From contig JAJPHT010000019.1 in assembly GCA_021325135.1 (NCBI GenBank), positions 1 to 64,000 on the forward strand: a DNA stretch of 64,000 nt, written 5' to 3'. The notes beneath the pieces are model-generated. The model was not told where the DNA came from. It saw only the letters and a program-made list of their open reading frames with translations, and searched no databases. A program made the translations under genes and the position numbers. Positions 3,412-57,931 of the stretch are shown here, piece by piece. The stretch is from Pseudomonadota bacterium (GTDB lineage: Archaea; Thermoplasmatota; SW-10-69-26; JACQPN01; JAJPHT01). Position 1 is the stretch's first letter. Each line of letters opens with the position of its first letter.

Positions 3412-3876
3412 TCACTTCAGCGGCATGAACTTGGACGACCGGGTGGCGCCGACGCCAGGGCCCGTGTGCTTCACGGACTTGCGCGTCTGGGCGAACTCGC
3501 CCAGCTTGTGCCCGATCATTTCGGTCGTGATGCCGATCTTCTGGAACTCCTTGCCGTTGTGGATGTGGACGAGCTTGCCCACCATCTGCGGGATGACGGG
3601 GAAGTCGCGCAGGTGCGTGCGCAGCTCCTCGCCGTCGCCGGCGGCCTTGACCTTCTCGAAGAAGACCTGCGTGTCGTGGTCGAGCTGGCGCCCGAAGAAG
3701 CGGCGGCTCCGGCTCGGCATGAGCTGGAGCTGCTGCTCGAAGGGCAGGGCCAGGATGTCCTTGATGGACTGGCCGCGGTAGAGGAACTCCACCTGGCGGC
3801 GCGTGTCGACGGCCATCTTCTTCTTGCGCTGGCGACGGGTCGTCGCGTTGGACTTGGGTTGGGGCTTGTCTGCCAT
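3412..3876 (-). CDS. rps19: 30S ribosomal protein S19 (uS19)
   Basis: RTHLRD, HNGKEF, EMIGHKLGEF, PGVGATRSSKFMPLK. Confidence 0.97.
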   Translation of the reverse strand: MADKPQPKSNATTRRQRKKKMAVDTRRQVEFLYRGQSIKDILALPFEQQLQLMPSRSRRFFGRQLDHDTQVFFEKVKAAGDGEELRTHLRDFPVIPQMVGKLVHIHNGKEFQKIGITTEMIGHKLGEFAQTRKSVKHTGPGVGATRSSKFMPLK

Positions 3877-3882
3877 GTTTCA

Positions 3883-4596
3883 TCACCCCTTCTTGAGACC
3901 CGTGCGGCGGGCCGCGATGTGACCGACGTTGCGGCCGGGGGGCGTGCCGCGCTTGAGCGTCGTGGGCTTGCCTTCCTTGCGGTGCGCGTTGCCTCCGCCG
4001 TGGGGGTGGTCCACGGGGTTCTTGGCGACGCCGCGCACGCGCGGGAAGAGGTTGCCCTTGGAGCGGTACTTGTGGGCCACCTTGCCGGCCTTGGCCAGCG
4101 GCTTGTCGCCGCGGCCGCCGCCCGCCGTGACGCCGATGGTGGCGCGGCAGGAGGGGTGGAACTGCTTGAACTGGCCCGAAGGCATGCGCAGCGTGACGCG
4201 CCCCTGCTCGCGGGACACGACGAACGCGGCGGTGCCGGCGGCGCGGACGAACTTGCCGCCATCGCCCGGCTGGCCCTCGACGTTGTAGACGGGAGTACCC
4301 TCGGGGATCGCGTGCAGGTAGGCCAGGTTGCCGGGCTTGATGTCGCTCGTCGTGAACGCGATCTGCTGCCCGACGGAGATGCCCTCCGCCGCGATGACGT
4401 GGTAGGTGGAGCCGTCGCCAGCACGGACCTCGGCCACCGGAGCGCTGCGGCCGGGAGCGTGGACGATGTCCACGACCTCCGCGGTCGTGTTGCTCGGGAC
4501 CTTGGGGTGCTTTGCGGGCCCCAGGTGCCGGTGACCCGGCGACATGTGGACCGGGGACGCCTTGCCCCGGCGCTGCGTGATGAGACGCTTGCCCAT
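3883..4596 (-). CDS. rpl2: 50S ribosomal protein L2 (uL2)
   Basis: MGKRLITQRRGK, DGGKFVRAAG, PRVRGVAKNPVDHPHGGG, GHIAARRTG. Confidence 0.98.
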   Translation of the reverse strand: MGKRLITQRRGKASPVHMSPGHRHLGPAKHPKVPSNTTAEVVDIVHAPGRSAPVAEVRAGDGSTYHVIAAEGISVGQQIAFTTSDIKPGNLAYLHAIPEGTPVYNVEGQPGDGGKFVRAAGTAAFVVSREQGRVTLRMPSGQFKQFHPSCRATIGVTAGGGRGDKPLAKAGKVAHKYRSKGNLFPRVRGVAKNPVDHPHGGGNAHRKEGKPTTLKRGTPPGRNVGHIAARRTGLKKG

Positions 4597-4605
4597 TCGT
4601 TCACC

Positions 4606-4875
4606 TCAGAAGATTCCGATCCTGGTGCCGATGTCCTCGGCCTTGACGCCTTCCGCGAAGCGGACGACGGCGTGCTTCTGGCCATCGGTGCCGATCTTGG
4701 TGTTGACGCTCGCGACCTGGGTCGAGAAGAGCTCCTCGACGGCCTTCTTGATCGCGGGCTTGGTCGCCGTGCGGCGCACGACGAACTCGAGCTTGTTGTC
4801 GCGCTCCATGCTGCCCATCGTCTTCTCAGTGACGAAGGGGTGGAGAATGACGTCGTAGGGGGTGGAGTGGACCAC
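4606..4875 (-). CDS. rpl23: 50S ribosomal protein L23 (uL23)
   Basis: HPFVTEKT, NKLEFVV, IKKAVEELF, VNT. Confidence 0.96.
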   Translation of the reverse strand: MVHSTPYDVILHPFVTEKTMGSMERDNKLEFVVRRTATKPAIKKAVEELFSTQVASVNTKIGTDGQKHAVVRFAEGVKAEDIGTRIGIF

Positions 4876-5637
4876 TTACATCGCCTCCAGGGCGTTGAGC
4901 GCGCTCTTGGTGAAGACGACGAGGCGGCCCGCGTCGCCGCCGGGGGCGACGAGCTCGGTGGAGAGCATCTCGGGGGTCGCGACGTCGACGCCGGTCAGGT
5001 TCTTGGCCGCGGTGAGGACCGGGGCCTCGAGGCCGGACACGACGAAGAGGATCGACTTGGGCGTGCGGTAGCGGCGGCCGCGCATCTTGCCGCGGCCCGC
5101 GCGCTGGTGCTTGCCCTCGTCCGCGCGGACGAGGTCGTCGCCCACGCCGACGGCGTCCAGCGCCGCCACGAGGTCCTTCGTCTTCTCGATGGCCTCGACC
5201 TCGTCGTCCAGGACGACGGGGAGCGTGAGGCCCTCCTTGAACTGGTGGCCGCGGGTGCGCACGGCGTCCTCGTTGGCGGTGGCGCCAAGGGCGGAGGCGC
5301 GCGCGAGGGCGCGCTCCTTCTTGTTGCACTTCTCGGACCAGTTCTTCTCGACGCGGGGCGGGTGGGCGCGGCGGCCGCCGACGACCGCGGGGGAGAACAC
5401 GGCGTTCCCGCCCTGGGTCGCGCGGGGCACGCGCGAGATGCCCTGGCCCGAGCGCACGGAGTGCTCGGGCTTGTGGCCCGCCAGCGGCGTGGGGCCGTAG
5501 GCCTGGCGGCGGTTGGCCTGCGCGGAGTTGACGGCCTTGCGGATGACGTCGGGACGGAACTCCGTCTCGAAGATGCCGGGAAGCTCGACCTCGCCGTTGG
5601 CGGCGCCCGTCTTGCTGTAGATGTTGACCTTGACCAT
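4876..5637 (-). CDS. rpl4: 50S ribosomal protein L4 (uL4)
   Basis: RPDVIRKAV, GQGISRVPR, GGRRAHPPR, RAGRGKMRGRRY, LVAPGGDAGRL; start reassigned to ATG 5637. Confidence 0.96.
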   Translation of the reverse strand: MVKVNIYSKTGAANGEVELPGIFETEFRPDVIRKAVNSAQANRRQAYGPTPLAGHKPEHSVRSGQGISRVPRATQGGNAVFSPAVVGGRRAHPPRVEKNWSEKCNKKERALARASALGATANEDAVRTRGHQFKEGLTLPVVLDDEVEAIEKTKDLVAALDAVGVGDDLVRADEGKHQRAGRGKMRGRRYRTPKSILFVVSGLEAPVLTAAKNLTGVDVATPEMLSTELVAPGGDAGRLVVFTKSALNALEAM

Positions 5638-5642
5638 CGATA

Positions 5643-6635
5643 TCACCGACCCTGCTTGCTGGCGGTGCTGACGTAGGCGATCTGGGGCTCCGCGATCTCG
5701 ATGCCGCGCGTGTAGCGGGCCGCCTCTCGGAGGCGGATGAGGCGCTTGGTGGGGCCCGGGATGCTGCCGTGGAGCAGGATGTAGTTGTTCCGCACGACGC
5801 CGTAGTGGAGGAAGCCGCCGGCGGGCGTGATCTCCGCGCCGTCGGTGCCGACCTTCAGGATGCGCTTGTTGTACTCCGTGCGGTTGTGGTAGCCCATCTG
5901 GCCGGGCATGGGGACCTTCATGGCGCGGATGAAGCGCGGCTGGAAGGGGCCCAGGGGGCTGGCGTCGCGGCGGTTCTTGCTGTCCTTGTGGCCCTGGAGC
6001 TTGACGCCCCAGCGCGGGACGGCGCCCTTGAAGCCGTGGCCCTTGGTCACGGCCGCCACGTCGATCATCTGGCCGACGTTGGTGAAGTCCGCGATGGTGA
6101 GCTCCTTGCCGAGCTTCTCGGTGGCGAACGCGATGCGCGCGGCGACGTCGCCGCCGCCCACGCGCAGCTCCATGATCTCGGGCGTCTTGCGCGGGACGCC
6201 GGTCACGAGCTTGGGCTGCGTGTACGCGAGGAGGCGCACGTCGTCGACCTTGGCCGCATCCGCCGCGAAGGCCTTGGGAGCCTTGGGGACGGGGAGGCGG
6301 GCGCCGAGGCGCTTGTCCGTCTCCGCGGCCCACTGCTCGCCCAGCGTGCGGAGGCCGTAGGGCGTCTCGCGGTAGTAGCGCACCGCGGCGACCTTCATCG
6401 GGGGGACCTCGACGACGGTGACGGGGACGGTGACCTCCTGGCCGGAGGTGAGCGACTCGGGGCGGTAGTCGGTGACGACCGCGTGAGTCATGCCCGCCTT
6501 GTAGCCCGCGAAGCCCTGGATCTTCGGCGCGTCTCCGCCGACCGGCCAGGACGTCATGCGGGGAACCTGGCTGTTCGCGCGGACGCGCGGCGAATAGCCT
6601 TTCGAACCCTTCTTTGGTCTGTGGGGCTGGCCCAT
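5643..6635 (-). CDS. rpl3: 50S ribosomal protein L3 (uL3)
   Basis: GFAGYKAGMTH, TKGHGFKG, GQMGYHNRTEYNK, GSIPGP; SD AAGGAGG upstream. Confidence 0.98.
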   Translation of the reverse strand: MGQPHRPKKGSKGYSPRVRANSQVPRMTSWPVGGDAPKIQGFAGYKAGMTHAVVTDYRPESLTSGQEVTVPVTVVEVPPMKVAAVRYYRETPYGLRTLGEQWAAETDKRLGARLPVPKAPKAFAADAAKVDDVRLLAYTQPKLVTGVPRKTPEIMELRVGGGDVAARIAFATEKLGKELTIADFTNVGQMIDVAAVTKGHGFKGAVPRWGVKLQGHKDSKNRRDASPLGPFQPRFIRAMKVPMPGQMGYHNRTEYNKRILKVGTDGAEITPAGGFLHYGVVRNNYILLHGSIPGPTKRLIRLREAARYTRGIEIAEPQIAYVSTASKQGR

Positions 6636-6935
6636 GGTATCTTCCTCCTTGAGCGGTCCGTCTCCAGGCCGTTCCGAGTTGCGCGCTCGAAGCGTTCTGT
6701 TGGCGAATCCGGAGCCCCTTGGACTCCTGATATCAGCGAACGGGCCGAAGCCCGTTCTTCATCCAACCGTGACGTCTCCTTCGACGATCATCCCGCCGGG
6801 CGAGCCCGGGAGAGACCGTCGAGCGCGGGGTTCCGCGAGAGCGGACAGCACCGGAGTGCATGCCTCGAACCGGAGTTCGGAGTCCGTTCCTGGTTGCGGA
6901 TTGCCCCTCGCGTCTGGTCTGGACTACTCAGGGTG
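6636..6935 (-). ncRNA. Candidate structured 5' leader of the ribosomal-protein operon
   Basis: ~300 nt with no credible ORF between the TATA-like box and rpl3. Long-range closing stem (6921-6930 with 6650-6659), cUUCGg hairpin (6738-6757) and further hairpins. Confidence 0.55.
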
Positions 6936-6957
6936 TAGGCCGGCCAAGAGGGCGGTA

Positions 6958-6966
6958 GTATATGAA
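6958..6966 (-). promoter_or_regulatory. Putative TATA box of the ribosomal-protein operon
   Basis: TTCATATAC preceded by CCAAACC; the main AT-rich patch upstream of the leader. Confidence 0.5.
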
Positions 6967-7089
6967 GGTTTGGTGGCTGGGGCCAAGGGATCGAAGTAAG
7001 CGACTGTGACCAGGCTCCTGCGCAAAGGCGCAACTTTCCAGAGTAGCGCCTTTGGTTCCTGGCTTAGCAAGGGCAAGTTAAAATGAGAC

Positions 7090-7437
7090 TCAGGTGTCCA
7101 CAATGTGCGCTTCGCCGCAGTCGTCAGTGAGCGCGTCGGCGGGGTTGAGTGTATAGTCGACGACAGTCAGTATCAACTCTCGGACGACTTTATTGCAGTT
7201 TTCCAGCTTCATACGATCGAGAAGACTTTCGCCATGAATCATTAGCGCTTCACTCAGTAGAGCGTGAATGAATGATTGCGTGGAAAGGTCAACACTTCGA
7301 AAGTCTACGGTGAAAGCACGCTTAGATTCAGCCAACGGCAGAATGTACTGCTCGCGTAGCATGCGCGCGATGTCTTTATTCTCAGCGAACGCACCCTCAA
7401 TGTAGTCTGCGATTTGGACAGTACGAAGAGAACTCAT
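7090..7437 (-). CDS. STAS-like domain protein (DUF4325-like)
   Basis: FTVDFRSVDLSTQSFIHALL resembles the STAS phospho-Ser loop; ATGA overlap with the upstream ATPase; AT-richer codon use. Confidence 0.75.
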   Translation of the reverse strand: MSSLRTVQIADYIEGAFAENKDIARMLREQYILPLAESKRAFTVDFRSVDLSTQSFIHALLSEALMIHGESLLDRMKLENCNKVVRELILTVVDYTLNPADALTDDCGEAHIVDT

Positions 7438-8417
7438 TCGAAGCGCACCTTCTTAGAGTAGTCACGCTTCTGGGCCTTTCCGCTTGGGAAGATCCGACGA
7501 ATCTGCCCCAACACTTCATTGAACGGCGTCGTTCTCGATACGTTTACATTAAGGCCAACAATCGTACCACGCCAAAACGGAGTCCCCTTTTCCAACCTAT
7601 GATTATCCTTGAGGGGATTCGGTTGGAGAGGTCCCTTGTTGCTCGGATTGAGCCTGTAATAAGCCCCTCCGCTGATGATCCCGAAATGCTGCCGCCCAGT
7701 CCGCGCGATACTCTTCGTGAAAAAGAGGCCAGCGCCGGCGTTCTCTGTGGCTCCTAAGCGGCCGCGGACTGCGCCGGTTGTGCCAGGAAGAAGAGCTACT
7801 GCTAGCGCATCCGCATCGTCTGCTTCCGCAAGTGATGGGTAGTTACGCGTCAGCGTATTGCGAACTCCACGTCCGCAGTCAGCCACACCGATGGCTACGT
7901 ATTGTGGTTTCTTATAATATTGTGCACACGCCACGGCCCCGTTCGTAGCACCGCTGTGCTCCAGAACGTTGCGAACGAGTTCGCTCAAGCAGTAGTTCAA
8001 GGCCTCACGGGGTTCCCGACTAGGGAGATGAAGGAGCGGCACAACGTTGGTCAGAAAGGCATCCATTTCCTTACTTGTTCTGATGCTAGTGAGTTCGATG
8101 AATCGCCCTGCTGGCTCATGCTCAATCATCACATGGTCGGTTTTAATCCCTAGGTAGTCAAAGAGACCTAAGCGGATTGCATACTGGATACCGGGGAGGA
8201 TTGGCCCATCGTAAGTGATCCTCCCACCTGCCTGTCGGACCTCTTGACCCCATGCGGCGAGTTGAGCCAATACGAAAGGCTGGGCATGGACGAGGTTGCT
8301 CTGAGCTTTGAGCACGAACTCTTGGTTGAGATTATCGAAGCAGAAGTTGTTGAGGCGGAGATAATTGTCCATAGTATGCATCGTTGCAGCATTAGGCAAC
8401 CTGATTGTTCGCCTCAT
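7434..8417 (-). CDS. Histidine-kinase-like (HATPase_c/GHKL) ATP-binding protein
   Basis: N-box ELVRNVLEHS, G1 DCGRGV, G2 NAGAGLFF, G3 GTIV; no H-box or TM segment seen; AT-richer codon use. Confidence 0.8.
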   Translation of the reverse strand: MRRTIRLPNAATMHTMDNYLRLNNFCFDNLNQEFVLKAQSNLVHAQPFVLAQLAAWGQEVRQAGGRITYDGPILPGIQYAIRLGLFDYLGIKTDHVMIEHEPAGRFIELTSIRTSKEMDAFLTNVVPLLHLPSREPREALNYCLSELVRNVLEHSGATNGAVACAQYYKKPQYVAIGVADCGRGVRNTLTRNYPSLAEADDADALAVALLPGTTGAVRGRLGATENAGAGLFFTKSIARTGRQHFGIISGGAYYRLNPSNKGPLQPNPLKDNHRLEKGTPFWRGTIVGLNVNVSRTTPFNEVLGQIRRIFPSGKAQKRDYSKKVRFE

Positions 8418-8636
8418 TTAAGCCAACCTCAACATTTCATATATATGATATTTTCTCAAATTTCCCTCGGAACGTCGCGAGGGGCATCCGCGCTACAGAT
8501 TCACCCACGGCCGAGCTAGGAATTCGCCTCCTAGAATTGGATCGGAGGTAGAAGAAGGATCCGGAGGATGCTGACTAATCTTTGGCCAAGCCTAAGTTTG
8601 GCGTCTCCAGTTCACGACCATCTATGGGAGACCAAG

Positions 8637-57537: not shown

Positions 57538-57931
57538 GCCTGGAAGCCGGCGGACGGCCGACGCTCCCGCAAGGGGGTGAGGAAAGTCCCGGCTCCCGTG
57601 AGCAGGGGCGTCGCGGCGCGATCCCAAGGACGCGCAGCGGCCGGGGCGAGAGCCCCGACCGAGGAGCAGACACGACACCGCCCCCGGGCAGCGTGATGGG
57701 GACCCAAGCCCCGGACGTTCCGGAGGGAGAGGATGAAACGGCCATCGGTCCCCGGAGCAAGTCCAAACGGCCCCGTCACGGCGCTCACCCAGGGGCGAGT
57801 CGGACGCGCCCCTCCGCATGGAGGGGGACGCCCGGAGGTCACAGTCCGGCGCGTCAGGAGAATGCCGTCAGTCCCCGGCGTCGCAAGACCACGGGGATGA
57901 ACAGAACCGGGCTTACGACCGGCATCCAGGC
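57538..57931 (+). ncRNA. rnpB: RNase P RNA (archaeal)
   Basis: GAGGAAAGTCC (57579-57589) and AACAGAACCGGGCTTA P4 motifs; P1 GCCTGGAAGCCGG/CCGGCATCCAGGC; GATGAAACGGCC. Confidence 0.96.

Follow-up and report, generated by a model that had tools for sequence, protein, structure and literature searches.

A structured RNA leader with a conserved three-way-junction core upstream of the rpl3 operon of Thermoplasmatota

The rpl3 operon and its leader region

The window analysed here is the whole stretch of DNA, 64,000 nucleotides long, and all coordinates refer to it. On its minus strand lies an operon of ribosomal protein genes headed by rpl3, which Pfam searches confirmed as the L3 operon that the initial annotation had placed downstream of a structured leader. 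Every sequence feature described in that annotation was likewise recovered at its position when the minus strand was read. The elements that delimit the leader are the following:

3430..6635, minus strand: first genes of the operon, rpl3, rpl4, rpl23, rpl2 and rps19 (Pfam L3, L4, L23, L2 and S19)
5643-6635, minus strand: rpl3 (L3 open reading frame), Pfam PF00297 at 2.3e-84
6635-6633, minus strand: ATG start codon of rpl3, read from the sequence
6650-6644, minus strand: Shine-Dalgarno sequence AAGGAGG, read from the sequence
6659-6650, minus strand: 3' strand of closing helix P1, GGACCGCUCA, adjoining the Shine-Dalgarno sequence and sharing the first A of AAGGAGG
6930-6921, minus strand: 5' strand of closing helix P1, UGAGUAGUCC, pairing at 9 of 10 positions with GGACCGCUCA
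6966-6958, minus strand: TATA-like box TTCATATAC, read from the sequence

The space available to the leader extends on the minus strand from the stop codon of a DUF4325/STAS-like open reading frame (7090) to the rpl3 ATG (6635). From the position of the TATA-like box we infer a transcription start at about 6933-6937, some 22-27 nt downstream of it. Every relative within the order, and distant members of the leader family as well, have a TATA-like box at the same distance upstream of the first helix. Directly upstream of the leader promoter, a patch of lower GC content (49-57% compared with about 70%) occupies positions 7030-8600 of the minus strand; it encodes a 327-aa HATPase-like protein and the 115-aa DUF4325/STAS-like protein, the stop and start codons of which overlap.

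Folding of the leader and its closing helix

The leader had been described as a closed RNA of several hairpins and approximately 300 nt. Folding of the 305-nt leader yielded a minimum free energy of -137.3 kcal/mol, compared with -122.4 ± 5.7 kcal/mol for 100 dinucleotide-shuffled controls (z = -2.60), and none of the 100 shuffles was as stable. The closing helix P1 is contained in this minimum free energy structure and was also seen in those of most of the 23 full leaders folded. In the genome analysed, P1 abuts the Shine-Dalgarno sequence, which is not itself sequestered in a helix. Compensatory variants of the helix occur among relatives, namely GUCGUCC/GGAUGGC, GUCGUCU/GGACGAC, GUAGUCU/AGACUAC, GCAGUC/GACUGC, GACGUC/GGCGUC and CGUAGUCC/GGACUGCG. 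When P1 strands of 13 representatives were permuted and pairs counted, the cognate strands paired better than swapped partners (58/10000), although such a test has little power in GC-rich RNA; the duplex energies calculated for cognate and swapped strands likewise separated the two only weakly in this GC-rich material.

A conserved three-way-junction core

Comparison among relatives separates the leader into two parts. The conserved unit is a core of approximately 110-190 nt, which in the window occupies 6766-6918 of the minus strand and forms a three-way junction of helices P2, P3 and P4. The folded leader of the initial annotation is real; its conserved part is this 5' core only and not the whole 300 nt. 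The layout was derived from an alignment (A1) of 22 core sequences, and its elements in the window are:

6918-6910, minus strand: 5' side of P2, composed of ACC (6918-6916), bulged A (6915) and GACGC (6914-6910)
6907-6904 with 6830-6827, minus strand: P3, GGGG paired with CCCC
6903-6901, minus strand: CAA loop following P3
6900-6897 with 6835-6832, minus strand: P3b, UCCG paired with CGGA, carrying variable distal hairpins
6822-6781, minus strand: P4, UCGACGGUC...GAUCGUCGA enclosing CCGGG-CUCG-CCCGG
6774-6766, minus strand: 3' side of P2, composed of CGUC (6774-6771), bulge AC (6770-6769) and GGU (6768-6766)

In the alignment, P2 has the form ACC-A-GACGC paired with GCGUC-AC-GGU, with an invariant internal loop of A opposite AC. 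P3, GGG(G)/CCC(C), leads into an asymmetric CAA/N loop, beyond which lies the covarying stem P3b. The stem of P4 is variable and in many cases has a 3' bulge or loop resembling UUCU, and the junction segment J4/2 is purine-rich. Near-invariant strings of the core are ACCAGACG, GGGCAA, CCC and CGUCACGGU. Two covariance models of the family, R1 and R2 (see below), match the window at 6755-6939. One lineage (L118, G103) has a minimal leader that lacks P4 (CCCUGC-GUAAAG-CGUCACGG), so that P4 is dispensable for the family.

An alternative pairing of the core was also noted. The 5' strand of P2, CCAGACG (6911-6917), could pair with CUGG (6664-6667) beside the 3' strand of P1, and in Methanomethylophilaceae the invariant CCAGACG has an alternative downstream partner, CGUCUG, near the ribosome-binding site. 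As these pairings and P2 are mutually exclusive, they hint at a conformational switch.

The lineage-specific 3' domain

Between P2 and P1 the leader contains a 3' domain of a different character, with the following elements:

6660..6765, minus strand: 3' domain, lineage-specific
6757-6738, minus strand: hairpin GAACGGGC-UUCG-GCCCGUUC, flanked by GGAUGA (6764-6759) and CUGA (6736-6733)
6727-6711, minus strand: hairpin GGAGUCC-AAG-GGGCUCC

The domain also holds UGGAUGA, CUGAUAUCAG, further pairing and, right before the 3' strand of P1, CUGGAGAC. It shows 71-84% identity within the genus, and in other families unrelated sequence stands in its place; the two hairpins are thus a lineage-specific decoration kept only within the genus. 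A different second element is found in the leaders of Methanomassiliicoccales and Marine Group III, where a hairpin with the loop GGUUAGCGA(AGA) lies just upstream of the Shine-Dalgarno sequence. It was seen at L127, L156, L144 and about 50 other loci, is missing in the lineage of the window, and may serve the core as an expression platform or as its partner in a tertiary contact.

The GA-containing motifs of the 3' domain had raised the idea of a box C/D or K-turn-like element, and with it of a leader regulated by L7Ae or of an embedded box C/D-like RNA. The flanking motifs themselves are real: UGGAUGA and CUGA frame the hairpin in part of this genus (6764-6733), and in one metagenomic relative (L079) the two are lost together. 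The remainder of the idea did not hold for the family. No complementary C-stem follows CUGA, no guide region is present, the motif lies outside the conserved core and occurs neither in the order's other families nor elsewhere in the phylum, and L7Ae is not among the genes of the rpl3 operon. We therefore regard control through L7Ae, or an embedded box C/D-like RNA, as very improbable.

Distribution of the leader and its link to rpl3

Comparison with 40 relatives by blastn showed the whole leader to be conserved in all four congeneric genomes (71-84% identity), with conservation beginning just downstream of the TATA-like box. Other families retain two blocks, one of 25 nt (AGUCCAGACCAGACGCGAGGGGCAA) and another, CGUCACGGUUGGA. 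A pattern composed of these two blocks had exactly one match per genome in 11 of the 15 species of the order, and the reversed control pattern had none; when mismatches were permitted, all 15 species matched, always upstream of rpl3. A metagenome scan added 8 new leader sequences.

To follow the family further, we used the covariance model R1 (179 positions, 23 pairs), which gave single matches in 30 of 151 sampled Thermoplasmatota genomes. Half of these genomes (15) lie outside the order, and there every match sits 40-93 nt upstream of the rpl3 ATG. A strict DNA pattern, ACCAGACG-N3-6-GGGC-N40-70-CGUCACGGU, was then run against bacterial and archaeal genomes, each species being represented by one, and had at least 120 matches. 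Among the 119 matches listed, at least 72 further species have rpl3 53-99 nt downstream, including Methanomethylophilaceae, Methanomassiliicoccus and its family, Ca. Methanoplasma, Methanogranum, Methanoprimaticola, Marine Group III, Poseidoniales (MG-II), SW_10_69_26 and soil Thermoplasmata; the remaining matches listed are mostly bacterial chance matches or cut loci.

A second covariance model (R2), built from 86 sequences, detected the element in 74 of the 151 sampled genomes, one copy each (54 of the 102 high-quality genomes); a second weak match in one genome is a false positive within a gene. By family, R2 matched 15/15, 12/15, 7/9, 5/6 and 3/3 genomes in five families and 7/16 in another, and no match was found in several families as sampled (0/9, 0/5 and 0/4). 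Matches in further families were checked individually: 12 of 13 lie 1-154 nt upstream of rpl3, and one was not assignable by the motif test. Compact members leave 1-18 nt between the end of the motif and the rpl3 ATG, and in them the Shine-Dalgarno sequence comes directly after the 3' strand of P2. These searches revealed a conserved element with strict rpl3 synteny in many lineages.

Covariation of the core helices

Pairing of the 23 model pairs was evaluated in alignments of 38 sequences and of 86 distinct sequences. In the former, 91.6% of cells were paired, compared with 77.2% in shuffles, and in the latter 91.9% compared with 76.7%; because both alignments had been fitted to the model, pairing is favoured and these percentages are somewhat inflated. 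In each of them, 16 of the 23 pairs changed on both sides. The covariation score was 0.368 for the 38 sequences (shuffled 0.141, slid partners at most 0.093) and 0.316 for the 86 sequences (shuffled 0.104, slid partners at most 0.067), and in both alignments the observed score was reached by none of 500 shuffles. Compensatory changes are also evident by eye. In P2, GACGC/GCGUC is replaced by GACAU/AUGUC, GACAC/GUGUC or UACAC/GUGUA, the outer pair of P3 occurs as G-C, C-G, U-A and A-U, and P3b and P4 vary freely in sequence with pairing kept. Since the signal stands far above the slid and shuffled controls, and such cases can be read from the raw sequence, we consider the covariation real.

Relation to known RNA families and alternative identities

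A scan of the whole window with Rfam 15 at the gathering thresholds returned tRNA only. A cmscan of positions 6500-7200 with E-values up to 10 gave four chance matches and no r-leader, RNase P or SRP, and six distant loci of the leader family, scanned by E-value, again gave tRNA only. Thus no Rfam 15 family matches the leader or these six distant members, and our literature search found no paper describing the motif.

We also considered whether the leader is a divergent form of RNase P or SRP RNA, a reading that was rejected as both RNAs are located elsewhere in the genome and the leader matches neither model. The RNase P RNA, archaeal and of a divergent Thermoplasmatota type, is present at 57542-57927 on the plus strand of the window (68.5 bits, E 1e-18); it was missed by the default window scan because its score lies below the Rfam gathering score of 84. 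The SRP RNA was found on contig C5 (41268-41527) in two pieces at the very end of the contig, so that the gene runs off the assembly. A protein-coding reading of the leader was rejected as well: open reading frames overlapping it have no Pfam hit, and among congeners the length of the leader differs by 14-20 nt, not by a multiple of three.

The initial annotation had offered a processed non-coding RNA as an alternative to a leader. The size of the element (110-300 nt) and its closed architecture indeed resemble those of stable RNAs, which would suit an independent or processed small RNA gene that merely precedes rpl3. RNase P RNA and SRP RNA are, however, accounted for elsewhere, and the sole promoter-like box lies upstream of the element. 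Moreover, the compact members end so close to the rpl3 ATG, with the Shine-Dalgarno sequence adjoining P2, that there is no room for a separate terminator and promoter. A separate RNA gene is therefore very unlikely.

Search for rRNA mimicry

Ribosomal protein leaders frequently, though not of necessity, imitate the site at which their protein binds rRNA. Such a resemblance was sought in the rRNA operon of a genome of the same genus by blastn-short and regular expressions, and nothing convincing was found. Comparison with five rRNA operons by blastn-short yielded chance-level words only, and R1 run against the same-genus operon with filters off gave at most 7.7 bits. In the 16S-23S spacer of a relative (G011), an exact 14-mer of the leader core, GACGCGAGGGGCAA, lies at L089 4587-4600 on the strand opposite to the rRNA; a 12-mer from the leader 3' domain occurs 85 nt beyond it, also on the opposite strand. 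A second related element beside this rRNA operon was considered and rejected: the similarity, antisense and within the spacer, is probably a chance match.

Two more specific likenesses were followed. The 23S rRNA of the same genus carries ACCAGAGAGGG (ACCAGA..GAGGG) in a leader-like arrangement (J19/20-H20) in the junction of H18, H19 and H20, the three-way junction that is the primary binding site of uL4/uL24 (PMC6426284). Lineages differ in this stretch of 23S rRNA (ACCAUAGA, GCCGAAGA, GCCAUAGA) but share an unchanged leader string, and we therefore take the mimicry of the uL4/uL24 site to be genus-specific and coincidental. A register of the P2 loop resembling the uS8 site (h21) had fitted the invariant A-C and its variable neighbour; it is contradicted by the G-C to U-A covariation of pair 26-203, seen in three families.

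Proposed function of the leader

The element lies on the mRNA strand in the 5' UTR of a ribosomal protein operon and its structure abuts the ribosome-binding site, as is characteristic of r-leaders. Together, the absence of an Rfam match, the strict synteny with rpl3 and the strong covariation lend support to the proposal of the initial annotation that the L3 operon is preceded by a structured cis-regulatory leader not described before. We consider that the leader is probably an autoregulatory ribosomal protein leader of a previously uncatalogued family, acting by blocking the ribosome-binding site. In all members this site stands beside the base of the core, either directly after P2, as in the compact members, or via P1, as in the order of the window. 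P1 restores the geometry of the compact members around the inserted 3' domain, bringing the Shine-Dalgarno sequence to the core base. A local 5' hairpin takes the place of this helix below P2 in Methanomethylophilaceae, which suggests that having a helix stacked at that position counts for more than how it is connected.

In the mechanism that we propose, a ribosomal protein encoded in the operon, when in excess over rRNA, would bind the invariant A/AC loop and the junction. Binding would stabilise P2/P1 and block or trap the 30S subunit at the Shine-Dalgarno sequence and AUG, so that rpl3 would be repressed, and the downstream genes too through translational coupling. By analogy with the bacterial S10 leader, uL4 is a candidate ligand, and uL3 is another, as it is encoded by the first gene of the operon.

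Most known r-leaders are smaller and less conserved than this core, which in both respects is also typical of riboswitch aptamers. As a riboswitch-like sensor, the leader would recognise by its junction and internal loop a small molecule or some other signal that is not a protein (for instance a nucleotide alarmone, polyamine, ion or tRNA) and would tie ribosomal protein synthesis to physiology. The near-invariance of the 8-9 nt strings of junction and loop across the phylum, combined with peripheral stems of variable length, is the pattern of an aptamer, and the negative search for rRNA mimicry also fits such a sensor. A riboswitch class, however, normally governs a number of genes for transport or metabolism, and the present leader occurs as a single copy per genome, only before rpl3, with no ligand-related genes associated with it; we hold a riboswitch to be unlikely. 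Nearly the same doubt applies to a structural element of the messenger that acts without feedback, by stabilising the polycistronic mRNA, setting a processing site or aiding ribosome loading, and to which we give only a marginally better chance than to the riboswitch. 5' stem-loops are known to protect messengers, and the 5' end of these leaders is tied into helices, P1 here and the local 5' hairpin in Methanomethylophilaceae. Simple stabilisers, on the other hand, need neither invariant unpaired nucleotides nor a conserved three-way junction, and the sequence conservation in the loops implies a specific partner. With the same low probability as the riboswitch, the core could be a branch of an ancient pan-archaeal control RNA of the uL3 operon, or could sense an assembly intermediate, an early-binding pair of proteins or a metabolite.

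Comparison with known ribosomal protein leaders

Autogenous control through structured leaders is established in bacterial operons, including the action of L4 on the S10 leader of E. coli (PMC10931766), and has been proposed for a few archaeal motifs, including a borderline L4 motif before the same operon in Archaeoglobi (PMC7247131). In the Thermococcus transcriptome, long 5' UTRs of untested function were noted on many ribosomal protein mRNAs (PMC4247193). The L4-Archaeoglobi candidate, which is in Rfam, resembles the present leader in being a structured archaeal motif in the 5' UTR of this operon (rplC, rplD, rplW, rplB...) that was identified through comparative genomics and had its ligand assigned by analogy alone. 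It is, by contrast, confined to Archaeoglobi and rated borderline (PMC7247131), and its Rfam family gave no score on the present leader (E up to 10) or on the six distant members. The Thermoplasmatota core is a different and larger three-way junction, backed by far more sequences and by covariation.

The E. coli S10/uL4 leader (PMC10931766) is similarly a long 5' UTR of several hairpins before an operon with rplC and rplD, and there, too, a protein of the operon exerts feedback close to the ribosome-binding site, as is proposed here. Unlike the present leader it is bacterial, has a narrow distribution and combines transcription attenuation involving NusA with translational control. It shares no sequence or structure similarity with the Thermoplasmatota leader, the operon of which lacks S10 and has no terminator-like element. 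The archaeal leaders of S15 and eL15 (PMC7247131) and of L1 (PMC10931766) are, like the candidate described here, archaeal cis-acting sites of repression by ribosomal proteins; in them the mimicry of the rRNA site is recognisable, whereas none was found in the Thermoplasmatota leader.

Implications

Judged from its sequence and conservation, the leader would be a new family within a known kind, the ribosomal protein leaders, with an unusually broad distribution and strong comparative support. To our knowledge, the regulatory RNAs recognised for archaeal ribosomal proteins are very few, those of L1 and L7Ae plus a handful of candidates, and for the main uL3-uL4-uL23-uL2 operon we know of none described beyond the borderline Archaeoglobi motif. 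The family reported here is large and covariation-backed and spans groups that are cultured or of medical and ecological importance, including the Methanomassiliicoccales of the human gut, marine Group II/III and soil Thermoplasmata, and its entry in RNA family databases would allow such 5' UTRs to be annotated. Should the pan-archaeal reading, or that of a signal other than a single protein, turn out to be true, the core would be a master switch of ribosome production in many archaea. An RNA of 110 nt with an invariant loop offers a handle on the balance between ribosomal proteins and rRNA in archaea and on the protein that senses it.
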